DNA of 64,000 nt from Candidatus Hermodarchaeota archaeon (GCA_016839805.1 JAEOTO010000006.1:64001-128000), one strand, 5' to 3'; numbered from the stretch's first letter, positions 1,425-50,834 are shown. The notes: generated by a model from the letters alone, not told the origin. Translations and numbers: made by a program.

Positions 1425-2288
1425 TCAAGTGGCTACTGGTTTGGCGAGGATGTTGTTGGTAATTGCAAATTCTAAGACTTCAACGATAGCATATTCAGGT
1501 AATCCTAGTAGAAAGGCGATTGTTTTGACATCTCGTTTCCCATCGACTAGAAATAGAATGTCTCGAGCAAAGGGACCAAATTTATCATAGAGATTACCAC
1601 CCACAGGTGATCCTTTGTCGAGAGCGGCGAGTAGGGCCTCGCCTCCTTGTGGGACAAAGGTTAGATCTATTCGAGATTCTGGTGATGTGGGTGTTGGGGG
1701 AGGTATAGATTCGATGGATTCAACTGGTGGGGGTTCTAATGGTGGGGGAAGCGATTCTTCATCAGAAATAGGAGAAACTGGTTCTATCGGTATTGTTGGT
1801 TCTGGTGGTGTAGCTGGGACCGGAGTGGGTGGTGGAGTGGGGGGAGGTTCAGTTTTTGTCTCTGGTGGGAGTGTTTCTGGTGGAGGTGGAGCAGGTGTTG
1901 GTGTTGTAGGTTGTGGGGGAGGTGTAGGTTTGGGTTCAGCAGGAGCTACAGGCATGGTTTTTAAGATTTCCAGATCCAGCTCACGGAGAGCAAGAAGGGT
2001 AGCTTTGGTTTTTACTACAGCTATTCCTAGTGAGAGATTGGGTGGAAATAGAACTGCGAGTAACCAATTGTTAGCAATTTTTGATATAACTACGAGCCCA
2101 GCTTCGGTGTTGACTGTGAGCTGGCTTATTTGCCCCTTGTAGAGACTCACAGTCTGTTTTACCATGGCTTCGGTGTCTGGATCAAGTTTGCTTTGATAGA
2201 CGACATTATCGGGTGATATAATACAGAATGCTTTGACCATCCGGTCAAACCGAAGGTTATCAAGTGCCCGCTGGACATCCTCTGCCAT
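1425..2288 (-). CDS. Roadblock/LC7-like domain + Pro-rich linker + C-terminal winged helix
   Basis: N-terminal roadblock-like pattern (VKAFCIISPDNVVYQS...QLTVNTEAGLVVI...SLGIA), about 95-aa P/T/E linker, C-terminal LVDGKRDVKTIA wHTH. Confidence 0.75.
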   Translation of the reverse strand: MAEDVQRALDNLRFDRMVKAFCIISPDNVVYQSKLDPDTEAMVKQTVSLYKGQISQLTVNTEAGLVVISKIANNWLLAVLFPPNLSLGIAVVKTKATLLALRELDLEILKTMPVAPAEPKPTPPPQPTTPTPAPPPPETLPPETKTEPPPTPPPTPVPATPPEPTIPIEPVSPISDEESLPPPLEPPPVESIESIPPPTPTSPESRIDLTFVPQGGEALLAALDKGSPVGGNLYDKFGPFARDILFLVDGKRDVKTIAFLLGLPEYAIVEVLEFAITNNILAKPVAT

Positions 2289-2367
2289 TGCTAGAGCTAT
2301 ACCCCCGAATGCGCATTTTGACTATACGGTACTGGGAATTAGCGCTCTAAAATCTTTGCGCCTTTAA

Positions 2368-4098
2368 TTATTCAGTCATGTTAATGTTGACTTTCTCCCC
2401 ATTTCCATCAATAAATCCAAAACCTTTACGTTCTAATTGAATAATTGTGCCTGGTTTTACCTCTCGAATTGCGTGTTCTGCTATTCCCTCCACCTTCCGT
2501 AGACTCGAAGAATTCAATTCACCTTTAATAAAGAGAACATCGGGATAACGCAATTCCATAGGAATCGAGTCATCTATGACCCATTGAATTCTAAATTCCG
2601 CCTGATCTAAGTCATCCCCTGCATAACTACAGTATATTGCTTTCTTTGTTTTTCTTTGAACCTGAATATTATAGCCGTGTTTCAATCGGAATATGTCTCC
2701 ATTCTTCAGTCGATTTGCATCTTGTCCATCAATATAGACGCTGTCCTTTATTGTGATGGTTCGAGTTCCTCGGTCTTTGAAATCAGGATGAAAAGGAATC
2801 TTCGCTGTGTGAGGCTTTGCATTAGAAATCTCAACCAGACTGGGTTGTGTAACAGCATAATAACGGTTAGCAATCGGGTCAACCAAGCGGCGATTGATGC
2901 CCAGAAGGACAGACCAATCTAATACAGGTTGTGCGACACTCAGTCCGACTTCCCGAGTCATTTCCCTAATCGCTTCAGGTATAATCCCTCGCCGTCGAAG
3001 AGCGGCTAGTGTGGTTAGACGAATGTCGTTCCATCCACTGATGAATCCAGATTTTATCAATGGTCGAATCTTACGTTTACTGACAGGACTACCTTCAATG
3101 GTAAATCGCGACCATTCTTGAATTAGAGGTTGGGGCAACTGAAAGAGATCTCGAATATATGCTTGGAGTTCATCTCTACTTGCAAATTCGTTACTCCGCA
3201 GTATGTGGCTGATCCCATTGCGGTGATCTTCTAATGCATTAGCAAAGTCATAGGTGGGCCATAGTCGGTATTGGGTTCCTTGAAATGGATGGGGATAATC
3301 GATAATACGGAAAATGTTAGGGTCGCGCATTACTGCGTTTGGGTGGTTCATGTCCACGCGCAAGCGACACACAATTTCCCTTTCTTTATATTTTCCATCA
3401 ATTATCTTATCCCAAATTGCTACATTCTTGTCACCTATATCTTGGCGATGTGGGCAAGGTGTACCGGCTCGGCGACCTTCTTTGATGACATCTGCTTGGC
3501 AAGTGCAAAAATACGCTTCCTGGCGTTCGAGTAGTTCTCGGGCCTTTTCATAGAAGTATGGCATGTCATCGGAAACCTTTAGCTCTTCATCCCAATCAAT
3601 CTCCATCCATTGATAGCCTTTTTTGAAAGCTTCATAGTACTCTTTTTGGACGTTTCGCGGGTTGGTGTCTTCAAATCGGAGGATTAACCGACCCCTGTAT
3701 TTCCGCGCATAATACCAGTTAATGTACCCTGCGTATGCATGCCCAATATGTGGGTAGCCACTTGGTTCAGGGGGTAATCGCGTCACCACTTTTCTCATTT
3801 TCGCGTCTTGTAGAGCTGGAAGCTCTTTGACACGACGTTCCTTGGACGCTTCTAGCAAATCGGGAGCCAAGTCCTGCAGTTCAGCTATTTGGTCAGCCAG
3901 AGGTATCTTATTGACCTCAGTTACAATACGGTTTACCTGCTCAATGATATCCTGAGCTTGTGATCGCAATTCAGGTCGTTCTGCAAGTAACTTTCCAATC
4001 ACGGCTTGTGAATTTGCCGTTCCGTGGAATTTAATGGCATTCGCTAGACTATATTTTCGAATAATGGGTCCTACTGGTATTTTGGAATCTTTATTCAA
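2368..4098 (-). CDS. gltX: Glutamyl-tRNA synthetase (archaeal type)
   Basis: RLPPEPSGYPHIGH, LRFEDTNP, WPTYDF, VSKRK motifs; archaeal N-terminal domain. Confidence 0.97.
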   Translation of the reverse strand: MNKDSKIPVGPIIRKYSLANAIKFHGTANSQAVIGKLLAERPELRSQAQDIIEQVNRIVTEVNKIPLADQIAELQDLAPDLLEASKERRVKELPALQDAKMRKVVTRLPPEPSGYPHIGHAYAGYINWYYARKYRGRLILRFEDTNPRNVQKEYYEAFKKGYQWMEIDWDEELKVSDDMPYFYEKARELLERQEAYFCTCQADVIKEGRRAGTPCPHRQDIGDKNVAIWDKIIDGKYKEREIVCRLRVDMNHPNAVMRDPNIFRIIDYPHPFQGTQYRLWPTYDFANALEDHRNGISHILRSNEFASRDELQAYIRDLFQLPQPLIQEWSRFTIEGSPVSKRKIRPLIKSGFISGWNDIRLTTLAALRRRGIIPEAIREMTREVGLSVAQPVLDWSVLLGINRRLVDPIANRYYAVTQPSLVEISNAKPHTAKIPFHPDFKDRGTRTITIKDSVYIDGQDANRLKNGDIFRLKHGYNIQVQRKTKKAIYCSYAGDDLDQAEFRIQWVIDDSIPMELRYPDVLFIKGELNSSSLRKVEGIAEHAIREVKPGTIIQLERKGFGFIDGNGEKVNINMTE

Positions 4099-12748: not shown

Positions 12749-12893
12749 ACACTCACCTGCCGAATCTCTTATAATTTCACACCTAAAATCCTTCGCTAAC
12801 CCAAATTTTACATTACAAAAAATATCAAAATTTCCGTAAAGTATATGCCCACGAAGTTAGCACCACTACATGAACATAAGAGGGACAGGAACG

Positions 12894-13784
12894 ATGCAAT
12901 TCGATCTGTTTAGCTTCATCCTAACCTATTGGTGGATTATCGTAATCCTCGTCTTCATCATCATACTCCTTCTCATCGTCCCCTTCATCAAAATCCTCAA
13001 AGAGTACGAACGAGCCGTCATCTTCCGCCTCGGACGCGCCGTACCCGGCGTCAAAGGCCCCGGAGTTGTCATCCTACTACCAATTCTGGACAAAATGGTC
13101 AAAGTCGATCTCCGCGAACAATACTTCGAAATCGAACACCAACGCTGTATCACCAGTGACAACGCCCCCGTCGACATCGACCTCCTCATCTACCACCGCG
13201 TCATCAACGCCCGAGACAGCGTCCTCCGCATCCGCGACTTCAGCGGCGCCGCCCTCGGCATCAGCCAAACCACCCTACGCGCCGTCGTCGGCGACATCAC
13301 CCTCGACGACGTCCTCGCCAAACGCGAATACATCAACAGCATACTCCGAGAAAAACTCGACGAAAACACTGAGCCATGGGGTGTCAAAGTTACTAAGGTG
13401 GAAATCCGTGAGATTCTTCCTCCTACGAAGGTAAATGAGGCGATGATCATGCAGATGGAAGCCGAGAGGCGACGTCGTGCTATGGTCACGGAGGCTGCGG
13501 GTAAACGTGAGGCGACGATTGCTGTTGCTGAGGGTGATAAGCGGTCTGCGATTCTGAAAGCTGAGGGTGACAGGGAGGCTTCTATTCTTCGGGCTGAAGG
13601 TGAAGCGCTGGCTTTACAGAAGGTCTTCGATGTTGCGAAGGGTATTGATGAGAAGACAATGACGCTTCAGTACCTGAATACCTTACAGGTTATTGGCGCA
13701 AGTGAGAGTACGAAGTATGTGATTCCCATCGAGTTTACCCAGCTCATTTCGCCGATTCAAAAATTCTTGAAGGCTGTCAAGTAG
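12894..13784 (+). CDS. SPFH/stomatin (band 7) protein
   Basis: TM helix, EYERAVIFRLGR, VDLRE, QTTLRAVVG, PWGVKVTKVEI, EAERRRRA. Confidence 0.95.
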   Translation: MQFDLFSFILTYWWIIVILVFIIILLLIVPFIKILKEYERAVIFRLGRAVPGVKGPGVVILLPILDKMVKVDLREQYFEIEHQRCITSDNAPVDIDLLIYHRVINARDSVLRIRDFSGAALGISQTTLRAVVGDITLDDVLAKREYINSILREKLDENTEPWGVKVTKVEIREILPPTKVNEAMIMQMEAERRRRAMVTEAAGKREATIAVAEGDKRSAILKAEGDREASILRAEGEALALQKVFDVAKGIDEKTMTLQYLNTLQVIGASESTKYVIPIEFTQLISPIQKFLKAVK

Positions 13785-13805
13785 GACTGGTTTACGATAT
13801 TCCCT

Positions 13806-13832
13806 GAGCCAGGTAGACGTTCTACCTGGTTC
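13806..13832. terminator. Stem-loop between convergent genes
   Basis: GAGCCAGGTAGA-CGT-TCTACCTGGTTC, a 12-bp stem with one G-T pair. Confidence 0.5.
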
Positions 13833-13850
13833 CTCGTCTCATATTACGTG

Positions 13851-14162
13851 CTATTTGGCCGCGGCTTGAATCTTTTCCTTGGCTGTTTCTCGGGTATCGT
13901 TATCCAAGACAGTGGTGTAGGAGTCATAGCCAGGTAGGCCGGTGGTGATTTCTTCGATGAGGAGCATGAGGGCTTTTTCGGCATCAAGGTCCCGTACTTC
14001 AAGGCTGGCATCATCAAAGATGAAACTTGCTTCTTTCCATTTCCCTTCTCCGATTTGATACATCAAATACAGGTAATCATCAGTCATGAGTATGGCGGAT
14101 TTGACTTTCCATGCTTCTTCTAAGATTTCGAGAGTTTTGTTGGCGTTCTCCTCTTTGCTCAT
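13851..14162 (-). CDS. Hypothetical protein
   Basis: 103-aa acidic ORF, ATG with GAAGTGA SD. Confidence 0.7.
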   Translation of the reverse strand: MSKEENANKTLEILEEAWKVKSAILMTDDYLYLMYQIGEGKWKEASFIFDDASLEVRDLDAEKALMLLIEEITTGLPGYDSYTTVLDNDTRETAKEKIQAAAK

Positions 14163-14243
14163 GAGACATCACTTCAGTGTAAGTGTACTTTACATTGGCG
14201 CATAAAAATCCGGTGGTAAAAAAGTGGTGGTTCTTACAAGGAT

Positions 14244-14804
14244 TTAGGGTTTGATCCAGGAGAAAACGAAGTAGCGGATTTTCCCTTTTTCGGTGGAAGT
14301 GGCTAGGACAAATCGTTTCCGTACGGAGGTGGCGAGTCGACCAGCACGGACAACTTCGATGGCTGAGACTTCATCGGATTTCGCAATTACCTCGACGATG
14401 AAAAGCGAATGATCGATACCCGGACCTTGCCGGTAAACTGCAAAATCTGCTCCAAATTTGAGTCCCGGGCGAACGACGAATCCGCGTTTTCTGAGGTCCT
14501 CATACACCTGGTACTTCCGACTGAAATCTTGATGGTGCTCCTCAGCGATGGCAATTAGTCTCCTTTCGTCTAATGGAGCTTTAGGGTCCTCTATGAATAT
14601 CTCGATGGTGCCCTTACGAAGTAGGTGAAGAGCTTCGAAGAAGGATAGTTGGGAGGGGCGGTCGAATTCAGTGGTTTTAGGCTTTCGAATGCCAAGTGGT
14701 TTGCCATAGAATCCATTGCTATATAGCTTTGAACCGTCTGCGGGGTCCCAGACAATGACTTTGTTTTCTACAATTTGGGTTGGAATACGTTGCGTGGCTG
14801 GCAT
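14244..14804 (-). CDS. endA: tRNA-intron splicing endonuclease, catalytic subunit
   Basis: VYEDLRKRGFVVRPGLKFGADFAVY; Y/H/K triad (VY..GPGIDH, VRK). Confidence 0.95.
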   Translation of the reverse strand: MPATQRIPTQIVENKVIVWDPADGSKLYSNGFYGKPLGIRKPKTTEFDRPSQLSFFEALHLLRKGTIEIFIEDPKAPLDERRLIAIAEEHHQDFSRKYQVYEDLRKRGFVVRPGLKFGADFAVYRQGPGIDHSLFIVEVIAKSDEVSAIEVVRAGRLATSVRKRFVLATSTEKGKIRYFVFSWIKP

Positions 14805-19258: not shown

Positions 19259-20509
19259 CTAAGACTTAGGTGTTGAACCTTCAACAAGGACTGTCTGTAC
19301 TGCTTCGGGAAACTCGATAGTGATGTCATTTCGAGTCACCTTTGATAACGACTTTTGAAGACGTTTTTGAAGAGTCTTCAGCTGTGAAGAAATCCTTTTG
19401 ATTTGTTCTTTATTATGAGTTAATTCCGATTTTACATCGCGATGTTCCCATTGCGCCCGTTCTAATGACTTTTCTAATTCCCGCCGCTCATCAGAAGACA
19501 CTGAAGCTTTCAAATCGGTTTTCCGTGACTCAAGATTAGTAAAACGATGCCGATACTCATCCAATGACCCTTTCTCACATATCTCCTCTTTACGCTCCAA
19601 CACTTTCCTTTCTAAGCTAGCTTTAAATTTGATTTTACTCCCTTGCAAAGCTTCTGCCAAGGCCCTCAATCCCGCCTTTAATTTCTCCAAGGATTCTGTA
19701 TCATTTTGAAAAGCCTGCCACGGATCTGCCGAATATGCATCAGCTCCTTCACCTGCTGTTGATGAAATCATCACAGCTCGTCCAGCAGCTTGACTTAATT
19801 TCTTGAACGGTTTTTTCAAAAAGTTCAGCTGGTTGGTGACAATCATCCGAACGCTGTCAATTTCCTTCCCAATCCCATCAATCTCATCCAGCCCTGAATC
19901 CATACGAAACTGCTCAATATCCCCCTTCTGTTCCTCAATCTTTCCTACCTTTTCCTCCTCCACCTTTTCAAGCTCAGACAATTGCTCTACCAACGACAAT
20001 AACTGACGAGACCTGTACTCAATCTCCTCTACTTCTCCCCCAATCTGATCCAATTGCTTCGGTACCTTTTCCTTCTCCCAAATCTTTCGAATCTTCTGGT
20101 AACTCTGTCCCACCACCCGAAACTGGTAATCAAACTCTTTGACAATCTTCTTATGGACTTTTGGCAACCGCGGAATATACCGTCTTCCAGCATCCGTAGC
20201 TTCGCGCAAATAGTCCTCTAAATCATCTAACAATTCCTGAACCGACGAATAGATAATTTCTTCAGGAATCATCATATCTTCAGCAATACTCTTTAACCGA
20301 CTTGACAACTTTGCCGCGGCTCCAGGCACTGTCAACTCTCCATCAATTACAACTTCTGCTAAAAGTTGATCCGAGGTTTCTACCGTCTTCGCCAAAGCGC
20401 CTTCAATCCGATCAGTTTGACGTTTAATGTCCGATCGATAGTTAAAGAGCAGCTCCTCAGCCCGCTTTTCAAACCATTCCGGTAATTCATATACACCAAT
20501 CGAAGTCAC
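19259..20509 (-). CDS. Helical/coiled-coil hypothetical protein
   Basis: 416 aa, E/K/L-rich heptads, GTG start with GAGGA SD. Confidence 0.8.
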   Translation of the reverse strand: MTSIGVYELPEWFEKRAEELLFNYRSDIKRQTDRIEGALAKTVETSDQLLAEVVIDGELTVPGAAAKLSSRLKSIAEDMMIPEEIIYSSVQELLDDLEDYLREATDAGRRYIPRLPKVHKKIVKEFDYQFRVVGQSYQKIRKIWEKEKVPKQLDQIGGEVEEIEYRSRQLLSLVEQLSELEKVEEEKVGKIEEQKGDIEQFRMDSGLDEIDGIGKEIDSVRMIVTNQLNFLKKPFKKLSQAAGRAVMISSTAGEGADAYSADPWQAFQNDTESLEKLKAGLRALAEALQGSKIKFKASLERKVLERKEEICEKGSLDEYRHRFTNLESRKTDLKASVSSDERRELEKSLERAQWEHRDVKSELTHNKEQIKRISSQLKTLQKRLQKSLSKVTRNDITIEFPEAVQTVLVEGSTPKS

Positions 20510-20672
20510 ACTGATATCCTCGCCTCACAAATCAGAAACAAGTATTAAAAAAACTACCTCAAAGAGAACCTTATACACCCCTACTACACCAAGCAATCCG
20601 CCAAAAAGCTTATCAGCGCCCTCCCATAGTCAACAATAGCAGAACCAACGCATCCTGGGATGTGAGCGGGCA

Positions 20673-21563
20673 ATTATCCATAACGCAATACTTTTCACCA
20701 TCAGCCCTCGCACAGACGAAGTCGGACTCCAAGCCAACGTCATCTTCCGCAAACAATACTGGCGCGTCGCCCTCAACGACGACATGATCCGCGAATTCCT
20801 CCGCGCCTACAAAGAATTCATGAGCCACGTCCAAAGTACCGACATCCCCACCCTCCCCATCCACATCCAAGGCGCCAAATACATCTTCACCAACATCGAA
20901 GACCTCCTCCTCGTCTTCATCAGCCACATGCAAGACGAAGACAACCGCGTCGCCGAAAAAGTCAAAACCGCCCTCCGCATGCTCGTCGGCAAATACGGCA
21001 CCGAACACATCAAAGAACTCGGCAACAACGACACCGCCGAACCCATCGAAGACCTCATTGACAACTACATCATGAGCAAACTCAAAGTCAGCCTCGTCGG
21101 CGAAGGCGGCGTCGGCAAAACCACCCTCCTCCGCCTCCTCAAAGGCAGCGCCCCACCCACCGAATACGTCCCCACCATCGCTCTCAGCATCGAACAAATC
21201 GAAGCCACCCGCTACGGAACCTACTCAATAATTTTATGGGACTTCGCAGGACAAGAGCGGTTTCGCCGGCTCTGGACCATTTATTTCAGGGGCTCAGACA
21301 TCGTATTCATCATCACCGACTCCACCCTCAACAACGTCATTGCCACAAAAGAAATCCTAGATGTCATCCGAAAAGACGCACCGGGTGTCCCTGTCTGGGC
21401 GATTGCCAACAAACAAGACCTCGAAGGCGCCCTCAGCCCCGAACTCGTCGAACGCATCCTCGGCATCCCCGCCTTCGGCATGGTCGCCATCGACCAAACC
21501 CGCAAAGAAGAAATGCTCCAAATTTTGCTCGATGCCGTCGATCGCTACATCGGGACGGAATAA
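20673..21563 (+). CDS. Longin-domain + Arf-like small GTPase (probable ATT start)
   Basis: GEGGVGKT, YVPTI, WDFAGQ, NKQD. Homology to the paralog at 25870 extends 37 codons upstream of ATG 20784. Confidence 0.9.
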   Translation: MIHNAILFTISPRTDEVGLQANVIFRKQYWRVALNDDMIREFLRAYKEFMSHVQSTDIPTLPIHIQGAKYIFTNIEDLLLVFISHMQDEDNRVAEKVKTALRMLVGKYGTEHIKELGNNDTAEPIEDLIDNYIMSKLKVSLVGEGGVGKTTLLRLLKGSAPPTEYVPTIALSIEQIEATRYGTYSIILWDFAGQERFRRLWTIYFRGSDIVFIITDSTLNNVIATKEILDVIRKDAPGVPVWAIANKQDLEGALSPELVERILGIPAFGMVAIDQTRKEEMLQILLDAVDRYIGTE

Positions 21564-25869: not shown

Positions 25870-26739
25870 ATGATTCACAACGTCTTCATCATGACCCGCG
25901 AAGGACGCATGGCCTTCCACCGTCAATACTGGTCCGTCGATATCACCACCGAAGATCGACAAGAATTCGTCGCCACTTACAAACACTTCGAAAAAGACCT
26001 CGGAGCCACCGTCGACCTCCCCATACATGTTAAAAACAACAAATTCATCTACACCGATGCTGGCACTCACCTCCTCCTCGTTTTCGCCGTTGACATCTCC
26101 GACGAAGACGAAAAAATCCGAGAACTCCTCAAAAAAACTCGCGAACTCCTCATCGACAAATACGGTCACGAAATCGACGCCTACATCCAAAAACCCGCTC
26201 CCCTAGGCCAAGCCTTCCAAGGCTTCGAAAAAGAACTCGACAGCGTCATCGTCACCATGCTCAAAATCTGCCTCCTTGGTCAAGGTGGCGTCGGCAAATC
26301 CACCATGCTCAAACTACTAACCGCCGACAGCATCCCCGGCGAATACTACCCCACCATCGCCGTCGACATCGAAACCCTCCAAGGCGTGCGCTTTGGCCCC
26401 TACGAACTCGCCGTCTGGGACTTCGCAGGACAAGACCGCTTCCGCTCCCTCTGGAACTACTACCTCCGGAACGCAGACGCCGTCTTACTCGTCACCGATT
26501 CCACCTTGAAAAATGTCTTAGAAACCCGTGATATTTTAGAAATCGTCCGCAAGAATGCACCCGCCTGCATTGCCTGGGCCATTGCCAACAAACAAGACCT
26601 CCCCGGCGCCCTCGCCCCCAAACTCGTCCAACGCATCCTCGGCGTCCAAGCCTACGGCCTCGTCGCCATCGACCCTCGCTATCGCGAAACCCTCTACAAA
26701 ATCATCCTCGGCGCCGTCGCTGAAGCCACCACCGATTAA
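25870..26739 (+). CDS. Longin-domain + Arf-like small GTPase
   Basis: MIHNVFIMTREG longin start; GQGGVGKS, WDFAGQ, NKQD. Confidence 0.92.
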   Translation: MIHNVFIMTREGRMAFHRQYWSVDITTEDRQEFVATYKHFEKDLGATVDLPIHVKNNKFIYTDAGTHLLLVFAVDISDEDEKIRELLKKTRELLIDKYGHEIDAYIQKPAPLGQAFQGFEKELDSVIVTMLKICLLGQGGVGKSTMLKLLTADSIPGEYYPTIAVDIETLQGVRFGPYELAVWDFAGQDRFRSLWNYYLRNADAVLLVTDSTLKNVLETRDILEIVRKNAPACIAWAIANKQDLPGALAPKLVQRILGVQAYGLVAIDPRYRETLYKIILGAVAEATTD

Positions 26740-26747
26740 ACAGTGAA

Positions 26748-27281
26748 TTATCCCTTTTTTAGCTGGTTTCGTTTTAATTGGATACCTACCATAGGAATTA
26801 TGGTGATAGTTCCCATTAAAAGAAATACGGCTGCAGATAAAACATATGGAGTTAGTAACATCAGGAGGGCTCCGGTCACAAAGACCATTATAATGATCAG
26901 CATGGCTGCGATCCAAAACCCCGGGAGTTCATGCTTGGACACATACTGCATTCGCCATAACGCCCAAACCAGATGAACCACGGCAAACATGACAAACCAC
27001 CCTAGAATATAATCCAACCACGGAATCACATCCATCGGTAACCATCCATACGCAACCCATGAATACGGGCTCAACAAAATAAAAGCTCCAGATACAAGAG
27101 CCCCTCCAATCCATGTAGCTAGAGCCAACGGCACAAACAACCATTTACTCCACCTTTCCACCTCCCTCCCGCCCAACGTCGGTCGAAGTAACCAATTAAC
27201 CCACAAAGTAAACCCCCAACTCCCAAGTAAAATACAAACAAATGGAAGAAAGAACGTTAAACCCGGAATCACATTCAACAT
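26748..27281 (-). CDS. Multi-pass membrane protein
   Basis: About 5 hydrophobic segments; CAGGAG before the start. Confidence 0.75.
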   Translation of the reverse strand: MLNVIPGLTFFLPFVCILLGSWGFTLWVNWLLRPTLGGREVERWSKWLFVPLALATWIGGALVSGAFILLSPYSWVAYGWLPMDVIPWLDYILGWFVMFAVVHLVWALWRMQYVSKHELPGFWIAAMLIIIMVFVTGALLMLLTPYVLSAAVFLLMGTITIIPMVGIQLKRNQLKKG

Positions 27282-27517
27282 CTCCTGAAACCAATTTCTA
27301 TTCCTTCATTCAAATATCCGTTGGTGTCGACAATTCAACCTAGTAAAACAGTTCTTATCCCGTTTAGATAAAGAAAGCAGCAACGAATATACACGAAACG
27401 GCAACGACGACAAACAAGTTAAATACGGGAAATCCGATAGTCAAAACGAAGTGCCAATAGGTCACTTTAAGTAATAAAGCTACAGGAAACTTTTAACCAA
27501 ACGGGAGGCTAAAAGAA

Positions 27518-29095
27518 TTGCCACGTGGTTTATCAGTCTGCAGGTGGGACGATAAAGTTGGCCTGCGTATTGTGGGTGTGTACCCGCGGAACCTAGAGGT
27601 TTCTGAGGATGATATGTTACGTGTTTTTACGGCGCACGCTATGGGTAAGCCGGAAGCTGGTTTTCTCACTATGACTCTTGAAGGAACGAACCTGGCGGTA
27701 GCGTCTTTTTACACTGGCATTCTCCGTGGGCGTGATCAGTTTTGTATTATGATGTTTATGGATTTGGATGAAGAACCGCGGAGTTTTGAAGAGGGGTTGA
27801 CGCTTGCGTCGAGTGAGATTGTGGAGAATATTGGTGAGCCGGAGTTTGTTGAGTATCTGGGTGAAGTGTTTGAGAAGCTGAAGCGGATGGTGGAGCTGTC
27901 CGTGGAGCAGCGGCTTGCTAAGGTGTTTGTGGATCAGGAAACGCGGTTGTTGATGCATAAGTTGGCTCGTGGTGGTATTTCCGCAGAAGAGCTCCGGGAA
28001 TGGCTTGAGTTACAGACAGGGAAGCATTACCCCGATTTAGGGCTAGTAACTCTGCCTTTGTTACGAAGTGGACTAGTGGAAGAGGATTGGATTAACGCGG
28101 TGTCAGACAACTGTGTCTTTCTAGTAAACGATTTGTTGGGTGCACGGTTTCCGCCAGAGCAGGTGATTAAACTTGCTAAAGGTGGCGGGTTAAACAAGGA
28201 GCAATACAACGAATTAGAAACGCGTGTGAAGAGTTTCTTTGAGGGTTATCAGTGGACTGAAGAAGATACGATTATTATTGGTCAGTTGCTGCTAGATCCG
28301 GATATTTATGACGTGACGAAGACGTTACGGCGGAAAATTGCGCATAAATCCGAGTTGGCGGGAGTGGTCGAAAAGGAAGCATCATTGGATAATGTGCTTC
28401 GACGTCTAGAGCAGGTACAAGTGATTACGAAATTTGGTGAAAATGCTGTTGACGTAGCTGCTAACGACGATCCGTTGATTGTGTTAATGGCGGATGTACA
28501 CTTTGAGTCTTTCTTCCCGGAATTTCTAGTATTGCGTATTCAGGAACGGTTAGAGGCTAAGGATATTCATCCGGATATTGCGAAGCGGCATCTAGAGTTG
28601 CTTAGTGAAATGTATATGCGTATGCGAGAGAAGATGAAAGAACGCAAGAAGCGAAAGAAGGAAGAGGAAGAAGAGGAACTTCCTGAAATCGAAGCTGAAA
28701 TGGTTCACCCGCCCGAAGTCGCTGAGGAGGAACCTCTAGAAACCGCTGAAATGCCTCCACTTGACGAAAAAGAAGCGAAACGCATTCGAAAAGAGGAGGA
28801 GAAAGCACGTAAGGAAGAGGAAAAACGTCTAAAAGTCGAGGAGAAGAAGCGGAAGAAGGAAGAGGCGCAAAAGAAGAAGGAAGAGGAGAAGCAGAAGAAA
28901 GAGGAAGAGAAGCGTCGCAAGGAAGAGGAGAAGCAGAAGAAGGAAGAGGCGCAAAAGAAGAAGGAAGAGGAGAAGCAGAAGAAAGAGGAAGAGAAGCGTC
29001 GCAAGGAAGAGGAGAAGCAGAAGAAAAAGGAAAAAGAGAAGAAGCAAAAAGAGGAAAAAAAGAAAGAAAAGGAACCTGAAGCTGAGGCTACCTAA
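27518..29095 (+). CDS. uDENN/longin-like + two winged helices + K/E-rich single-alpha-helix tail
   Basis: WDDKVG..I.GVYP longin motif; LLRSGLV and LEQVQVI wHTH ends; GGGAGG SD, TTG start. Confidence 0.8.
   Translation: MPRGLSVCRWDDKVGLRIVGVYPRNLEVSEDDMLRVFTAHAMGKPEAGFLTMTLEGTNLAVASFYTGILRGRDQFCIMMFMDLDEEPRSFEEGLTLASSEIVENIGEPEFVEYLGEVFEKLKRMVELSVEQRLAKVFVDQETRLLMHKLARGGISAEELREWLELQTGKHYPDLGLVTLPLLRSGLVEEDWINAVSDNCVFLVNDLLGARFPPEQVIKLAKGGGLNKEQYNELETRVKSFFEGYQWTEEDTIIIGQLLLDPDIYDVTKTLRRKIAHKSELAGVVEKEASLDNVLRRLEQVQVITKFGENAVDVAANDDPLIVLMADVHFESFFPEFLVLRIQERLEAKDIHPDIAKRHLELLSEMYMRMREKMKERKKRKKEEEEEELPEIEAEMVHPPEVAEEEPLETAEMPPLDEKEAKRIRKEEEKARKEEEKRLKVEEKKRKKEEAQKKKEEEKQKKEEEKRRKEEEKQKKEEAQKKKEEEKQKKEEEKRRKEEEKQKKKEKEKKQKEEKKKEKEPEAEAT
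28852..29025 (+). repeat. Perfect 84-bp tandem duplication (28 aa, KKEEAQKKKEEEKQKKEEEKRRKEEEKQ x2)
   Basis: GAGGCGCAA recurs at 28862 and 28946 and the intervening units are identical. Confidence 0.9.
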
Positions 29096-34530: not shown

Positions 34531-37500
34531 TTATTTTCGAAGTAAAATCTCTTCTGAAGCAGAAATCCATCGGGGACCAAGAGTTTGATTGAAAAGCGCT
34601 ATATAGCTTGGTTGATCACTAACTACAGCCACGGTTTCTCCTTGATTACCGTAGGTTGGGGCAATTAGGACCTCCTCACCATCTCGCGATCCTCCATAAA
34701 ATTCCATGTTTGGATTATTCCAGATGCGGATATTACCTTGTTGTAAAAGTTTACGTGCATTAGTTCGTTGTTTTTCACCATCAAGAGTAGTAATAACATG
34801 GATGCGGGTTTGAGGTTGGACTTTACTCAACTCCACAACTGGAACTTCGTCAAAGGACGGATAAACTAAGGTGATAGTATTACTAACACGGCGAAACATA
34901 TCCAGGAGATGATTTTGAATTCCCTCACAGGATACAATCCGCCATGTCCGCTCTGCCTCGGAAGGTTCAAGGCTTAAGAGGGTCTCCCATAAACCAGTTA
35001 GGATGTTTTCAGTACTAGTAGCTTGGTTTCGAAGGCGATCCAAAATTGGTTCAGTTTTTTGTGAAAAAAGCTGTAAAGTGTTGATAGATGTAGTTTCAGC
35101 TGTTTTGGCTCGGGTAGTAATTTCCTTAGCAAGGGTTTGGTATTCCGTTTTCAGTGTTTGACGCTCTTTACTTAACGTTTGACTAATACGTCTTCCCGTC
35201 TGCTGAGTCTGAGTTACTAAACTTTCTTTGGCTGTGTCAATAATCTGTTTCGTGGTGGCGATGAGAGTTTCATTCTTTTGTTGAACATCGATTGAAGCTG
35301 ATTCTTCAAATGTGTGCATGGTCTCTCTGATATGGCGTAGGCTATCCTGGATAGCACGGATTAACCTTGTCTTGGTTAAATCAATGGTTTGTTTAAAGCT
35401 TTGGAGAGTTTTTTCAATTTCTTGACCGAATCCAGTCCTGGCTTTAAGATTATCTTCTTCAATTACTTGGCTAGTCTCAGAGAGGATTCTATTAAGCTCT
35501 GTTTGTGAATCGGTGAACATGGAAGTCAGCTTCTGAATGAGTTGCTCCGACGTTGTATTCACCTTGTCACTAATACTAGACAGGTTGGTTTGAATCTGCG
35601 TAGCAAATGTACCTGTTTTGGAAGTTAGACTCGTTTGCAGGTTTTGGTTAATTTCTGTACTCTTAAATTCAGTTTGGTCTAGAATTTCGTCTAAGGCTGT
35701 ATCTATTTGTGTATTCGATAGATCTAACGCTTCTTTTCCTTCCTCTGCCTCCTGAGTCAGTGTTGAAAGTAATTTAGTTTGAGAGGTGTTGATGTATTCA
35801 ACAAAGTTTTGAAAAGTTGTGGTGACCTCCTTGCTTAGTGAGTTTTGCATTTCGTCAATGGCGGTTAGTTTTTGTACCCTATTTACCTCAATTGCCTGTT
35901 GCAGTTCAGTATCAATAGTTGCACCTGTAAGCTTGACTTTTTCCACCAGTTTCGAAGCAACAGTTTGCAGCTGGACTATCTCTTCCTGTAAATTAGTGAT
36001 GTAGTTCTCAGTTTCTTCTGATAAGGCATTAGTATATGTATCAAGGTGCTTGTCAATTGCTGCCCGTTGTTCATCGATTTTTTCAGCACAAGTTAGTCCA
36101 ATTTCCTCAATGATATTCTGGGCTTTCGGGATCTGGTTTTGAGTGAATTCTTCTAGTTTTGTTTGTATGCCCGTCAGCGTATCGATAACATTGGTACTCT
36201 GTTGAAGAATCATGTCATGAATGCTCTTTCTAAGATTTTCTACACGTTCTTCTTGTTCTTCAAGTTCTCTTTGGAGACTTTCAACAAAACTATCTGCCGT
36301 TTCACGAATGGCGGCGAGATTGGCAAGAGTAAGAGATTCAATCTTACCAGTCATGGTTTCCATTTTCTGGCTTGATGTATTTTTTTGAGCCGTAATGTCG
36401 TTACCTAAAACCTCAAGAAGCGTTTGGGTCTCTTGGAGCTGTGCTAGGCAATCCTCCTGCATTTCATTAATTCCCTGGATGATTTGTTCATTAAACCCGG
36501 TTTTTTCTCGATCAAAGGCCTGGGCAGTTGCTGTAAGAAGATTGTTCGCATCATCACTGTAATTAGTAAGGCTGGTCGTTACATTCACGGTTGCTTGATC
36601 AACTGCCGTTCCACTGGCTGTACTAAGGGCATTTAGGTTGCTTACAACCGTATTAGTATATTCATCGATAATTTGGGTAAGAGGAAGCCAGTGTTTGTCT
36701 ACGAGCGTCTTAGCTTCATTATCGTAAATGTCAATAGTCTCGTTAAGCTTGGTTTTGAATTTATCAAGGAGAGGTTTGATTTCAGGGGCTTCAGTAGTTA
36801 GGTATTCTTGGAGTGTCCTCTGTAATTGGTTTTGTAGGCGGTTCTCAAGAATCGTTTGAAAAGCACTTTGGGCTTGGTTTTCTAGTTCTTCACGGTTAAT
36901 TATCAAAGTATCTTGGTAAGTTTTTATCGCTGAACTAGTAGCGTTTTTCAGAATCTTAGAAAGAGCAGTTTCCAAGCCTTTAGCATAATTTACTTTGAGG
37001 AGCTTCTTGTGGAAAGATTGTGTTTCAGTATTGATACTCTCTCCATATGCTTTCAATTTATTCCCGAGTAAAGATTGGAACTTCATTAAGGACGATTCAA
37101 AATTATTGACCTGACTGTTAAGGTTTTGTGCCAAAGTTTTGGAGAGTAACTCTTGAGGAAATTGTGTGAGCTTATCTTGAGTTGATTTAAGAATGGCTGT
37201 AATTTGTTTATCACGTAGTGTTTGATTTTTCAACTGCTTGCCGAATTCTATCAAAATTGTTTCTAATTCTTGTCTTATTTTAGTTCGTACAACTTTTGAC
37301 TCTCTTTTTAGAGTTGTTGGGAGTTTTAGTATTTGGCTGGTTGTTGCCTGAAAGAGTTCGTCAATCTGGCTTTCTCGATTGGTCTGCCGAGTCAGCCTTG
37401 CCTTACAGTTACGAAAAATAGCATTAATCTGCGTTTTGAATTCCTTCTCAAACTGATCTTTAATTTGAATAGTCTGTTGATTTTGTATTTTGGTAACTTC

Positions 37501-39909
37501 TTTCCGGGTCTGTGATAACGCCGAGTCTGACTGTTTCTGAAATTGAGTATTTTGTGTTGTTATGAAATCTTGAATTGTTGCTGTGATGGCATTCAGCTGT
37601 GCCCCCAAGGCTTTGGTCAGTGAAGTATTGATAATTTCAAGCTGTTTGGGTGTAACATGTTCATTGAGAGTGGATTTCGCGGTAGTCATTGCCTGAGTTT
37701 CGAGGATTGCCTGATTTTCATCAATTGTGTTTTGATACTTGTTTAATGCAGCCAGAGCATATTCAGGTATTACCTCTTGAAGTGAGATTGCTAAACCAGT
37801 AATTATTTTCTGATCTCTTTTTATTAGTTGGGTCGAGTGTGACCTAAGTGCTCGATTAACTGCGTTATTCCGCTTTTTCTGAATTTTTTTGCTTGACAGC
37901 GAATAACCTGTGGTTGCTGTATTGATCTTGATTGCCTGCTCTTCTCGCAGTCGATCCGCTGTGTTTTCTATGCCTTCAGAATATTGTTTAATGATGTTTT
38001 GAAGTTGAGTGAATTCCTGGCGTAATTCCGAGCTTGTTTCCTTAGTCATCTTCTTCAAAGCGGCTTGGAATGCCTGTAATTGTCTCTCAATATCCTTCTG
38101 ACGCTTAGTAGCTTTCGCGATATTTTCTTGTGCAGCTTGTTTTACTGAGTCTCTAGTACGATTAATCCGCTCTTCAGCATATTGACCGATTTGCTCTTCC
38201 GTAGTTGCTAACGTATTTAGCACAATACCAATTTGTTGTTTAAGCAGATTTTCGGTCCGTTTACAAAAGGTACGTGTTTGTTCTTCTTGGAGGGCGATTT
38301 TGGATTGGAAATCAGAAAGAAAGGCGTTTGCAGTGTTTAGGATAGTAGTTAATCGTCTTTTCAGACGTGTTCCAACTTGGTTGGCTATGGACTCAAAATT
38401 TCCAGGCAGGGTGGTCTTTTGTTTTTTGAGATCTTTAATGAGCGTTTGGCTGAGAGTATTTAATTCGAGCAGTTGGGCGAGATATGTATCCCGCATTTCA
38501 ACTCCCAGTCCCTCACTGGCGGCTTCGAGAAGGCGCTCGTGATCGGTTTTAACTTGTTCTGTAAGTGTGTTCAAATCGGATTGAATTTTAGAAAACTGTG
38601 AAAAAGGTAAAGCCGTCGGAGGCCACTGTGAGATGGTACTTTCAACCTCTTTTTGTAACCGCTTATATTCCTGGCTACCTGTTTCAAGGGACTTTTGTAG
38701 ATCTTGGATGAGGGTTTCGGTAATTTGGGTTAAATTTTCACGTGCAACTTTTATTATTGAATCCATATCAGCTGCAATTTTGTCACTGTTCTTTTGCTGT
38801 CGCCGGGTCTCTTTCTGAAGGAGCTTCTCAATGCGAGATAACATTTCATCTATGGATTGCGTTCGTTGTGTCCAGGTTTCACGAATTTGTGATTTGGCGT
38901 CCTTATTCTGTTTAAAGAGAATTTGTTTGATTTCCTTTTGAAGTGTGTTGATATCCTCTTGCGTTTCTTGAGTGAAAGTTTCGAGGTTGGTGTTAATGGT
39001 GGCGGTTGTCTCTTCGGCAATTTCTGAGATTCCTTCTTTTTCTGATGTAATTTCAGTTGTTAGGGTTTTAACACTTGAATCGATGTTTCGCTTTTGTAAA
39101 GAATTCGCCTCTTCAAGATGTGTTTTAATCTGCTGTGTAAGTGTGTCTGACTGATCAAGTAAACGACCGGCAATTGTTGTTAACCATTGTTCAGCTTCTT
39201 CTTCATGAGCCTCTAGCCCCTTGTTTACATCTGCTAAGGCAAGATTCTGAGTCTCATCTATTTGGCTAACTCCTTCTGCAATAGACTTTTTGAGTGATTG
39301 TTGAAGAGTAGTGATCGACTTAGAAAATCCATCTACAGTTGAAGTGGATAGGTTAGTCAAAGATTTCTGCAAATTCTCAGCGACGTTATTCAATACAATA
39401 TTCGTCGCCATGGCTGCCTCACTTAGGGCTATTCCCTGCCGCTCTAGATTGTCTACAGCCGTTTTAGTCTGTCTAGTCATTGATTGTAGTTCATGATGAA
39501 TTTTATCCATTGTCTTATTCTGAAGTTTTTGCAGTTCCTTCCAAGAGGCTTGAGTCTCTTTTGTGAAGGCTTTTACTTCAGCAGATAATTCCCTGTAGGG
39601 TGCATAGGCCTGGTATCGAGTTACAACACCGGGTAAGGGTTTCACGAGCTCTCTTTTCTTCAGCATTTCAAGGACAGTCTGAACCTTTACAAAAGTAACA
39701 CCTGAATACCGACTAATTTCATCAGGAGTTAATTGCCTCATAACCAGCAAAGCGATATAAACACGACTCTGAGACTCGGTGAGCTTAAACCGAGCCCGAA
39801 CTGCTTTGAATAGATCTGGGGAAATCTCAAAAGCCGTAGGACCTTGGAGAGGGGCAAATTCTCCGCTTTTAGAAGTGGGGGGTTTGGAATCATCTTTTTG
39901 TGGTGTCAT
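34531..39909 (-). CDS. Giant TrmB-like protein: wHTH + about 1550-aa helical rod + C-terminal TrmB effector-like domain
   Basis: LTESQSRVYIALL..QLTPDEISRYSGV...RYQAYAP; Q/T/E/L-rich helical middle; WRIVS.EGIQNHL.DM...V.NTITLVYP. Confidence 0.85.
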   Translation of the reverse strand: MTPQKDDSKPPTSKSGEFAPLQGPTAFEISPDLFKAVRARFKLTESQSRVYIALLVMRQLTPDEISRYSGVTFVKVQTVLEMLKKRELVKPLPGVVTRYQAYAPYRELSAEVKAFTKETQASWKELQKLQNKTMDKIHHELQSMTRQTKTAVDNLERQGIALSEAAMATNIVLNNVAENLQKSLTNLSTSTVDGFSKSITTLQQSLKKSIAEGVSQIDETQNLALADVNKGLEAHEEEAEQWLTTIAGRLLDQSDTLTQQIKTHLEEANSLQKRNIDSSVKTLTTEITSEKEGISEIAEETTATINTNLETFTQETQEDINTLQKEIKQILFKQNKDAKSQIRETWTQRTQSIDEMLSRIEKLLQKETRRQQKNSDKIAADMDSIIKVARENLTQITETLIQDLQKSLETGSQEYKRLQKEVESTISQWPPTALPFSQFSKIQSDLNTLTEQVKTDHERLLEAASEGLGVEMRDTYLAQLLELNTLSQTLIKDLKKQKTTLPGNFESIANQVGTRLKRRLTTILNTANAFLSDFQSKIALQEEQTRTFCKRTENLLKQQIGIVLNTLATTEEQIGQYAEERINRTRDSVKQAAQENIAKATKRQKDIERQLQAFQAALKKMTKETSSELRQEFTQLQNIIKQYSEGIENTADRLREEQAIKINTATTGYSLSSKKIQKKRNNAVNRALRSHSTQLIKRDQKIITGLAISLQEVIPEYALAALNKYQNTIDENQAILETQAMTTAKSTLNEHVTPKQLEIINTSLTKALGAQLNAITATIQDFITTQNTQFQKQSDSALSQTRKEVTKIQNQQTIQIKDQFEKEFKTQINAIFRNCKARLTRQTNRESQIDELFQATTSQILKLPTTLKRESKVVRTKIRQELETILIEFGKQLKNQTLRDKQITAILKSTQDKLTQFPQELLSKTLAQNLNSQVNNFESSLMKFQSLLGNKLKAYGESINTETQSFHKKLLKVNYAKGLETALSKILKNATSSAIKTYQDTLIINREELENQAQSAFQTILENRLQNQLQRTLQEYLTTEAPEIKPLLDKFKTKLNETIDIYDNEAKTLVDKHWLPLTQIIDEYTNTVVSNLNALSTASGTAVDQATVNVTTSLTNYSDDANNLLTATAQAFDREKTGFNEQIIQGINEMQEDCLAQLQETQTLLEVLGNDITAQKNTSSQKMETMTGKIESLTLANLAAIRETADSFVESLQRELEEQEERVENLRKSIHDMILQQSTNVIDTLTGIQTKLEEFTQNQIPKAQNIIEEIGLTCAEKIDEQRAAIDKHLDTYTNALSEETENYITNLQEEIVQLQTVASKLVEKVKLTGATIDTELQQAIEVNRVQKLTAIDEMQNSLSKEVTTTFQNFVEYINTSQTKLLSTLTQEAEEGKEALDLSNTQIDTALDEILDQTEFKSTEINQNLQTSLTSKTGTFATQIQTNLSSISDKVNTTSEQLIQKLTSMFTDSQTELNRILSETSQVIEEDNLKARTGFGQEIEKTLQSFKQTIDLTKTRLIRAIQDSLRHIRETMHTFEESASIDVQQKNETLIATTKQIIDTAKESLVTQTQQTGRRISQTLSKERQTLKTEYQTLAKEITTRAKTAETTSINTLQLFSQKTEPILDRLRNQATSTENILTGLWETLLSLEPSEAERTWRIVSCEGIQNHLLDMFRRVSNTITLVYPSFDEVPVVELSKVQPQTRIHVITTLDGEKQRTNARKLLQQGNIRIWNNPNMEFYGGSRDGEEVLIAPTYGNQGETVAVVSDQPSYIALFNQTLGPRWISASEEILLRK

Positions 39910-49597: not shown

Positions 49598-50137
49598 CTA
49601 TTTACCCTCCTGTCCTGGTAATGACAGTTCCTTTTGCTGGAGAAAATATTCCAGCGCCTCCATCATTTCCTCTACGGAAAATTCACCCTCAACCGGCTTT
49701 TTAGTAAAAATCAGTGCTTCCGTGGGACAGAACTTTACACATTGCGGATCTCCATCACAAAGATCACATTTCAACAGCATCTGACTTTTCTCATCAAGGC
49801 GAATCGCAAGTTTCTGCTGCGGGTCCACGGCATCCAACCCAATCACACATACGCTCACACACGTTCCGCATTGAATACACAACTCCTGATCCACTACTAC
49901 TGCATTGGTCTTAATATCACGGGATATCGCCTCTTGCGGGCACGCCTCTAGACATGGTGCATCAACACATTGCTGACAAACAACAGGAACATCTTGAACC
50001 GTCTCATCAAACGACAACACTTGGATCCGCGCTTTGCTCGGCTGAAAAGTCCCCTCATGTACCTCACTGCAGACCAACTCACAGACACGGCATCCAGTGC
50101 ACCGACTCGGAATCACAGCAACCCGCACACTTACCAC
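49598..50137 (-). CDS. 4Fe-4S dicluster subunit of AOR
   Basis: CTGCRVCELVC, CQQC..APC...CP, CIQCGTCVSVC, KCDLC....QCVKFCP; 1 nt from aor. Confidence 0.93.
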   Translation of the reverse strand: MVSVRVAVIPSRCTGCRVCELVCSEVHEGTFQPSKARIQVLSFDETVQDVPVVCQQCVDAPCLEACPQEAISRDIKTNAVVVDQELCIQCGTCVSVCVIGLDAVDPQQKLAIRLDEKSQMLLKCDLCDGDPQCVKFCPTEALIFTKKPVEGEFSVEEMMEALEYFLQQKELSLPGQEGK

Positions 50138-50288
50138 ATTCCTAAAAAATACCAGCTAGAAGGCTGTAACATGCCAAAAAAACGTTGTGAATCAACCTCG
50201 AGATTTTCATCTCAAAGGACTCGTCACCGAACAGTTTTTTAGCGTTTGTCCCTAAACTCAAAGTTAGAACCATCGGAAGCGTCAAACA

Positions 50289-50834
50289 GTGGAAGACGAA
50301 GGAATCATGCTCAAACTCGTCGTCGCTGGCGAAGGCGGCGTCGGCAAAACCACCCTCATCCGAAGATACGTCGAAGGCGTATTCCATGATTCCAAAATGA
50401 CCGTAGGCGCAGGCTTTGCCGCAAAACGACTAATTATAAATGACGGACATGGTCCCACCGCACTAAAGCTCCAGCTATGGGATTTTGGCGGCGAGAAACG
50501 CTTCAGGTTTTTGTTGCCGAAGTTTTGTTTGGGCTCACGGGGAGCGATGTTAGCCTTTGATTTGAACCGGTTTAGTACCTTTCTCAAAATAGACCAGTGG
50601 CTAGATTTGATTCGAGAAAATACCGAGGATATTCCAATCGTTTTGATTGGAATGAAGGCAGACCTTCAGCGGGCTGTGAATCAGAAGGAAGTTATTCAAT
50701 TTGCGAAAAAGCATGGGTTGAAAGCGTATTTTGAGACGAGTTCTAAGAATGATCTGAATGTGACTCCAGCCTTTGAGTATATTGCGAAACAGATGCTGGA
50801 GTATGTTCGGAATCGAATATCACAAGCCTCTTAA
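50289..50834 (+). CDS. Rab-like small GTPase
   Basis: GEGGVGKT, TVG..F, WDFGGE, GMKAD, YFETSSK; no C-terminal Cys prenylation motif. Confidence 0.93.
   Translation: MEDEGIMLKLVVAGEGGVGKTTLIRRYVEGVFHDSKMTVGAGFAAKRLIINDGHGPTALKLQLWDFGGEKRFRFLLPKFCLGSRGAMLAFDLNRFSTFLKIDQWLDLIRENTEDIPIVLIGMKADLQRAVNQKEVIQFAKKHGLKAYFETSSKNDLNVTPAFEYIAKQMLEYVRNRISQAS

Follow-up and report, generated by a model that had tools for sequence, protein, structure and literature searches.

A mirror-image switch of codon endings in a Hermodarchaeia stomatin gene as a possible scar of recurrent, site-anchored DNA repair

The DNA considered here (hereafter the window) is a stretch of 64,000 nucleotides, GCA_016839805.1 JAEOTO010000006.1:64001-128000, read on one strand, from a member of the Hermodarchaeia (Asgard archaea) from marine sediment whose genome comprises 2.31 Mb in 50 contigs at 44% GC. 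Positions 12870..13784 of the plus strand hold an ORF of 304 codons for an SPFH/stomatin protein (Pfam Band_7 match, E 2.8e-32), with a Zn-ribbon protein, a 103-aa ORF and EndA as neighbours. Within this gene the third codon positions change abruptly: counted in the frame of the ORF, 70 of the 70 codons at 13158-13367 end in C or A, and 56 of the 70 codons directly after 13367 end in G or T, which are exactly the counts given in the original prediction made from this DNA. The same prediction held that the protein is continuous over the switch, and indeed the reading frame is unbroken there, both in the window and in 19 of 19 Hermodarchaeia genomes.

The borders of the two patches rest on a three-state HMM run on third codon positions, which assigns codons 24-166 (12939-13367) to a C/A patch (A 30, C 104, G 3, T 6) and codon 167 to the stop to a G/T patch (A 16, C 17, G 55, T 50). 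The left patch (12941..13367, 143 sites, plus-strand G/T fraction 0.06) peaks beside the flip, with no G or T across the last 60 codons, and has faded by ~12950; the right patch (13368..13781) has a plus-strand G/T fraction of 0.7-0.95 per 20-codon bin at third positions, with an HMM core at 13370-13670. Between them, the flip centre (13365..13390, codons ~166-173) falls in the motif ..DENTEPWGVKV.. The 4-fold sites count C 50, A 10, G 1 and T 1 on the left of the flip and T 31, G 18, C 7 and A 5 on the right. These counts indicate that the halves differ by transitions, a pyrimidine remaining a pyrimidine and a purine a purine, and they make the two halves imperfect mirror images (C 50 and A 10 on the left, T 31 and G 18 on the right). 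GC3 is ~74% on the left and ~50% on the right. Codon positions 1 and 2 are ordinary, and congeners whose stomatin genes are free of the bias encode proteins ~90% identical to that of the window; the bias touches selectively free sites only.

The flip centre itself lies inside coding sequence with a GC content of 0.52-0.59. It contains no AT-rich unwinding element and no origin-recognition repeats, no palindrome or Rfam match was found at the flip, there is no TATA/BRE-like AT-rich element at 13368, and the inverted repeats nearby are short ones only, 50-85 nt to the left. The protein around it is highly conserved, the motif REYIN..LREKLDE..TE.WGVKV being kept as far as the ortholog of another family (62% identity). 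Elsewhere in the genome the flip sequence has a single 16-nt match, at a C/A-rich patch (C3:4560); we considered this match as a guide-like or repeat copy and rejected it, putting it down to shared codon bias. Skewed stretches also harbour long stop-free frames without a family match, in the window at 13066-13434 (plus strand) and 13190-13489 (minus strand), and elsewhere in the same genome (G000) at G000:C9:67740-69581 and C3:3392-5470; such ORFs, spurious or at best doubtful, might be taken for genes in annotation.

When third positions are re-scored by the plus-strand base, regardless of the orientation of the gene, the skew is seen to extend beyond stomatin. A weaker continuation of the right patch (13785..14361, plus-strand G/T of 0.5-0.85 at third positions) runs through the minus-strand 103-aa ORF and the gene for the tRNA-splicing endonuclease EndA, as far as 14360 or beyond, and makes the codons of both C/A-ending. 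On the other side, the intergenic DNA upstream of stomatin (12749..12869) is G-poor on the plus strand (9 G in 121 nt, G+T fraction 0.35), in agreement with the direction of the left patch, which indicates that the bias is not confined to codons.

It had been predicted that the same pattern recurs three more times in the 64 kb, and C/A to G/T flips are present near 21550, 27500 and 50500. The second C/A patch (20495..21512) lies in an Arf/Roc-like small GTPase gene, with a G/T-ward flip near 21554. The third (25878..27279) covers a plus-strand GTPase gene with C/A-ending codons and the adjoining minus-strand gene with G/T-ending codons; since these genes are oppositely oriented, the bias tracks the DNA strand and not the coding strand. 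The centre of this third flip is in or near a divergent intergenic region, ~27280-27520, and its G/T partner (27727..27979) reaches a G/T fraction of 0.93. The fourth flip (50102..50813), in a Ras-family GTPase gene, combines a C/A patch at 50102-50384 with a G/T patch at 50666-50813. Small GTPase genes (Arf/Roc/Ras-like, a multi-copy Asgard family) thus hold three of the four skew sites of the window, at 20784-21560, 25870-26736 and 50289-50831. We rejected another candidate, a stretch at 34531-39909 whose plus strand is G/T-rich over 5 kb: it corresponds to a minus-strand gene for a 1792-aa protein rich in Thr, Leu, Gln and Glu, its third positions are unbiased, and its skew comes from amino-acid composition.

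Over the whole genome we counted 92 skewed patches of 0.1-1 kb, of which 51 are rich in C/A and 41 in G/T; they make up 1.2% of sites. Adjacent patches of opposite sign within 5 kb are arranged C/A-then-G/T in 11 cases and in the reverse order in 1 (binomial p 0.006), and the sharp change-points (score above 0.5) comprise 11 peaks from C/A to G/T and none of the opposite sign. The mirror pattern is its own reverse complement and so reads alike on both strands, as first proposed, and it has the bidirectional, origin-like polarity that had been noticed: the G/T-rich strand always runs 5' to 3' away from the centre. No common motif was seen by eye at the 11 sharp flips. One other insert-free flip lies in secY, 28 codons before the stop, and recurs in several of the orthologs examined from the genus. 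Two further loci differ in layout. A 630-aa ATP synthase c-subunit gene with eight tandem ATP-synt_C domains (G000:C21:143107-144999, minus strand; L023:2111-4000) has a 5' C/A patch and a 3' G/T patch, so that its flip brackets an internal repeat array and not an intein. At the start of another contig (G000:C42:1-13600; L029), LAGLIDADG-like ORFs at 268-1509 and 1524-3188 are followed to the right by plus-strand G/T patches scattered over ~12 kb, a one-sided and unusually long gradient.

Such runs are far outside what the genome would give by chance. The per-gene G/T fraction at third positions has a genome-wide mean of 0.495 (sd 0.067), and forty-codon windows with a G/T fraction of 0.15 or less number ~120, against ~0.03 expected from a binomial. 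The original prediction had named membership in the genome-wide null distribution as something that would count against it; these numbers speak the other way. The 70-codon C/A run of stomatin is the second longest in the genome, within-gene shuffling being a weak null for run length, with wholly biased genes giving runs of up to 55. The fixed point near 13370 that had been postulated coincides with the highest change-point score of the genome (0.76, at 13368-13370), the sharpest flip in 2.3 Mb.

We compared the stomatin orthologs of 18 other species in two genera (14 from the genus itself and 4 from its sister genus), among which the gene order round stomatin is kept throughout. The switch occurs at one alignment column in these orthologs, within a few codons of ..DENTEPWGVKV.., with a graded strength: the left and right G/T fractions are 0.06 and 0.78 in the window genome, 0.21 and 0.83 in one sister-genus species, and 0.50/0.54 and 0.55/0.50 in the two weakest congeners, while the ortholog of another family is unbiased (0.50 and 0.45). 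The strengths on the left and on the right covary across orthologs (Spearman -0.71), so a single central process drives both sides. At left 4-fold sites the sister genus uses A and C about equally and the window genome mainly C; this difference between genera means that the bias arose in place and not by transfer. The earlier statement that codon optimisation or horizontal transfer of the whole gene is insufficient as an explanation is supported.

Polarising substitutions against orthologs had been suggested as a check, and the changes have the direction expected. On the branch ancestral to the window genome and its sister, 12 third-position changes fall in the left half, 10 of them T>C, and 26 in the right half, 17 of them either A>G (11) or C>T (6). 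On the terminal branch of the window genome, T>C is seen in 5 of 8 changes in the left half and A>G in 6 of 9 in the right half. Some C>T reversion has occurred in the left half of the sister genome. All this takes place where third-position identity within the genus is 0.45-0.6, silent sites being otherwise saturated. The strength is moreover specific to the locus: one congener (G009) has an extreme pattern at PolD and none at stomatin, and the window genome is the reverse, which fits independent site-specific drivers.

The mention of PolD brings us to inteins. The genome of the window has ~16 loci with LAGLIDADG or intein-splicing domains. Its candidate ORFs for free-standing LAGLIDADG proteins are C42:268-1509, C42:1524-3188, C46:56101-57219, C48:29446-31308, C12:3080-4696 and C13:24847-27000. 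In MCM, PolD DP2 and PolB the extein has a run of C/A before the intein and one of G/T after it, with the intein interior unbiased; the runs reach the ends of the intein in PolD, the saturated runs halt ~30-80 codons short of it in MCM, and the pattern is weaker in PolB. The flip centres, which total 14.8 kb, contain 3 of the 16 LAGLIDADG loci against 0.10 expected (P 1.7e-4). Several other inteins of the same genome have unbiased flanks.

It is PolD DP2 of the relatives that is decisive here. Within the genus, flanking runs are found in 5 of 5 intein-bearing alleles, that of G009 having ~120 C/A codons and then ~130 G/T codons. The presence of this intein is polymorphic among close species: two loci lack it (G004:C153, L055; G011:C18, L043/L052) and the other sampled species of the genus carry it. 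The intein-less allele of G004 has an abrupt C/A to G/T flip at the empty site, just like that of stomatin, and the empty allele of G011 has a weak pattern. The pattern is absent from the empty PolD DP2 alleles of four other Asgard families as well as from an intein-bearing allele of another family (G021). On this comparison of alleles, the mirror mark needs both a site-specific event and a repair property particular to the lineage, and an insert-free flip is the appearance that an empty homing site takes on in this lineage. The stomatin flip bears the flank signature of the proven homing sites of its lineage, empty ones included, and sits in a highly conserved protein and DNA motif; it can be called a putative homing site, by resemblance only.

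We also looked for an element or a nuclease at stomatin. None of 24 longer stomatin homologs contains an intein domain, the additions being NfeD and other fusions. A split stomatin was considered from 235 shorter homologs and rejected; two close hits, both from Hermodarchaeia, cover just the N-terminus as far as residues 152 and 80, respectively, and the gene of the first runs off the end of its contig. There is no interrupted stomatin in 19 Hermodarchaeia or 400 Asgard genomes, and no split match near residue 166. In relatives, no endonuclease gene adjoins stomatin and synteny is kept, two of them having an unrelated large ORF downstream. In short, no allele with an intein, an intron or an endonuclease gene in stomatin was found, and stomatin is not among the known hosts of inteins.

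Taking these data together, we think that the stomatin flip is the scar of a recurrent, site-anchored break repair or recombination hot spot at codons ~166-173, a mark of the kind that intein homing sites bear in these genomes; we put the probability of this reading at somewhat above one half (about 0.55). The data themselves show the pattern and its rule of polarity, its conservation, the tie to intein sites and the direction of the substitutions; the breaks at the stomatin site, and the biochemical step that writes the bias, are what we infer. The DNA would be repeatedly broken at the flip, or fragments ending there would be recombined; the 3' ends would invade a homologous copy, and repair synthesis would proceed outward both ways. 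The outcome would be strand-asymmetric, the strand made 5' to 3' away from the site gaining G and T or, equivalently, the 3'-ended invading strand retaining just C and A at mismatches. The outward strand being the top one on the right and the bottom one on the left, the plus strand would end up rich in C/A to the left of the site and in G/T to the right of it. Of the changes, just the transitions at selectively free sites would survive, so that the protein remains unchanged while silent positions approach saturation.

Three sub-mechanisms could produce this asymmetry, and all would fit the polarity equally. The first is G.T misincorporation during repair synthesis that escapes correction; among replication errors, G/T is far commoner than C/A (PMC6159521). 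The second is deamination of the displaced nascent single strand, in synthesis-dependent strand annealing or break-induced replication. The third is a strand-asymmetric biased gene conversion by heteroduplex correction of the NucS/EndoMS type. EndoMS/NucS cleaves G/T, G/G and T/T mismatches and not A/C, C/C or A/A (PMC4838380); a G or T in the invading strand would give the recognised G.T, G.G and T.T, and a C or A the unrecognised A.C, C.C and A.A. This last possibility would be a drive at the level of the population, needing few events per lineage, which eases the problem of saturation. The genome of the window encodes a NucS/EndoMS homolog (E 4.5e-32), and its sole MutS_V-domain protein is a weak match (E 9e-14); the positions concerned are G000:C22:100164-100490 and C22:141895-142287. 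Deamination of single-stranded DNA, which was part of the original interpretation, does not fit in two of its forms: if it struck the 3' tails left by 5' to 3' resection, or the donor strand that is displaced, the polarity would be the reverse of that observed, and we rejected both.

Several points weigh against our reading, and should be kept in mind. No element or nuclease was found for stomatin, no shared motif was seen at the flips, several inteins lack flank bias and the two halves are imperfectly mirrored. In addition, an allele that already holds the intein is no longer cut by the endonuclease of that intein, and the number of events needed for saturation is hard to explain unless there is a population-level conversion drive or persistent cutting. 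A broader proposal, to which we would give slightly less than even odds, is that Hermodarchaeia possess a lineage-specific, strand-asymmetric, break-primed repair that marks every recurrently broken site. The flips would then be a map, at codon resolution, of hot spots of double-strand breaks and homing, and the orphan flips would reveal unseen nucleases or mobile elements.

How does this compare with known systems? Homing of inteins and introns with co-conversion of the flanks (cleavage of the empty allele by a LAGLIDADG enzyme and repair from the occupied one) shares with the stomatin flip the one-codon anchor in a conserved motif and tracts of a few hundred bases per side, and the mirror mark is present at the PolD, MCM and PolB intein sites, occupied and empty; the difference is that stomatin has no intein, intron or endonuclease that we could find, and the literature searched gave no account of homing that leaves a lasting, strand-asymmetric scar in base composition. 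GC-biased gene conversion (in mammals, yeast and bacteria) likewise links a fixation bias to recombination and reshapes silent sites locally in a way that can look like selection. Stomatin differs in that the opposition is keto versus amino, strand-asymmetric and mirrored, with no symmetric rise in GC: the left side is C-rich but G-poor, and on the right G is about as frequent as T. Kataegis-like clusters, produced by damage to resected single strands at breaks, share strand-coordinated changes that switch strand at the break; damage to 3' tails, however, predicts G/T on the plus strand to the left of the break, opposite to what is observed. These clusters are also somatic and unfiltered by selection. 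The skew between replication strands (the GC skew of bacteria, and the jumps at human origins and CpG islands; PMC3269016, PMC2817419) has a jump of the same sign, C/A before G/T on the plus strand, but the flips differ in scale (0.1-1 kb versus replichores or tens of kb), in being saturated versus a few per cent, and in being many per genome and located in coding motifs and at intein sites. Finally, the published specificity of the NucS/EndoMS mismatch repair (PMC4838380) is exactly the keto/amino asymmetry that would be needed, and the gene is present; a role in heteroduplex correction here is what the third sub-mechanism would suppose, and NucS is widespread in archaea without known scars.

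Among the alternatives, the one that survives best is that an intein or intron ancestral to Hermodarchaeia once occupied the stomatin codon and was lost in all sampled members, the flip being a decaying fossil with no present breakage. We consider it unlikely. A gene uninterrupted in 19 of 19 genomes, a strength ranging from saturated to none among species, as expected of a decaying mark, and the C>T reversion in the left half of the sister genome are all in its favour. However, the terminal branch of the window genome is still biased (T>C 5 of 8 left, A>G 6 of 9 right), and given the saturation of silent sites within the genus (identity 0.45-0.6) a fossil would be expected to have vanished by now, but strong versions, differing in their usage of C and A, persist in both genera.

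Slightly less likely still is a local, bidirectional initiation of replication (at an origin, or recombination-dependent) at each cell cycle, with a leading-strand bias over a few hundred bases; an origin or a helicase-loading site was among the readings first offered for this locus. The polarity is that of an origin, with a G/T-rich leading strand, a persistent force would account for saturation, and human DNA is known to have bidirectional asymmetries round its initiation sites (PMC2817419). On the other hand, the centre is a conserved, GC-rich coding sequence with no unwinding element or repeats, and instead of replichore-long skew at one or a few sites the 2.3 Mb of the genome hold 92 patches of just 0.1-1 kb and no fewer than 11 sharp flips, several of them exactly at intein insertion sites. 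The pattern also brackets inteins with unbiased interiors of 1.5 kb, exists at an empty PolD site, and varies in strength from locus to locus between close species. An origin or a helicase-loading site is thus not supported in the form first stated, while the fixed point and its polarity stand. On the whole the earlier interpretation is partly supported, and the evidence points to recurrent site-specific break repair of the homing type.

Divergent transcription from a cryptic internal bidirectional promoter, with R-loops exposing the non-template strand to deamination on both sides, appears improbable to us. It has the right polarity, and the flip at ~27280-27520 of the window does sit between divergently oriented genes. 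However, in most patches it is the coding strand that is rich in C/A (as in stomatin's 5' half, in rpS19 and secY, and in the N-exteins of both MCM and PolD), whereas sense transcription would enrich that strand in G/T; the upstream and downstream exteins of one transcript are oppositely biased, and 13368 has no TATA/BRE-like element.

Selection on codons or mRNA would favour a different codon set in each half of the gene, Watson-Crick NNC/NNA for the membrane-proximal one and wobble NNT/NNG for the C-terminal one, and NNC/NNA versus NNT/NNG is indeed the split between Watson-Crick and wobble reading under archaeal anticodon sparing. We regard it as very improbable, and it is already contradicted by patches that follow the strand of the DNA rather than the reading strand of the gene: the bias enters oppositely oriented neighbours with its codon sense inverted, as well as intergenic DNA, and orthologs with a 90% identical protein lack it.

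The last alternative, a chimeric assembly or a mosaic of two donors with different codon usage, has a negligible probability, since Logan contigs from three other studies (X2 records 12 and 13, X4 record 19, X6 record 29) cross 13367/13368 at 98% identity or more and the flip is common to 18 other species. The chimeric join that the original prediction had named as a possible refutation is therefore not what these independent contigs show. No joint, loose end, clipped contig or insertion allele was found at the flip in four metagenome runs, the contigs of the source run being blank over 13204-13600 and so uninformative there. A divergent strain contig departs from the window mostly by having T in place of C in the left patch. 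Independent assemblies do break inside the skewed region (window ~13147 and ~13325): one contig of the source run stops at 13147, and a contig of a GenBank MAG at residue 152 of a 99%-identical stomatin allele (L125). These breaks suggest a high strain heterogeneity in this region; no argument for an artefact was found. A short contig has at its end (G004:C155:2804-3085, L124) a second, partial copy of the 3' part of stomatin (residues 211-304, 80% identity), a probable strain variant rather than a copy that has moved.

The original prediction suspected an undescribed process at the level of the chromosome. The recurrence across the genome agrees with this, and a full-text literature search found no published description of a mirrored codon bias, whether at intein sites or in Asgard genomes. 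What is described here is a compositional bias associated with recombination that is strand-asymmetric, mirror-imaged and anchored to a codon. It is strong enough to distort analyses of codon usage, phylogeny and horizontal transfer, and it creates spurious long ORFs. If our reading is correct, sequence alone would mark where the chromosome of an uncultured Asgard archaeon is repeatedly broken and repaired, together with the direction of repair synthesis or of heteroduplex correction. Active or past homing sites could then be located without seeing the element, and ideas about the homing cycle would become testable. Stomatin, the sharpest flip of the genome and one with no known element, would be the best place to seek a new source of breaks. 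An unusual repair bias, keto versus amino and not GC versus AT, would also be exposed in the archaeal lineage nearest to eukaryotes.
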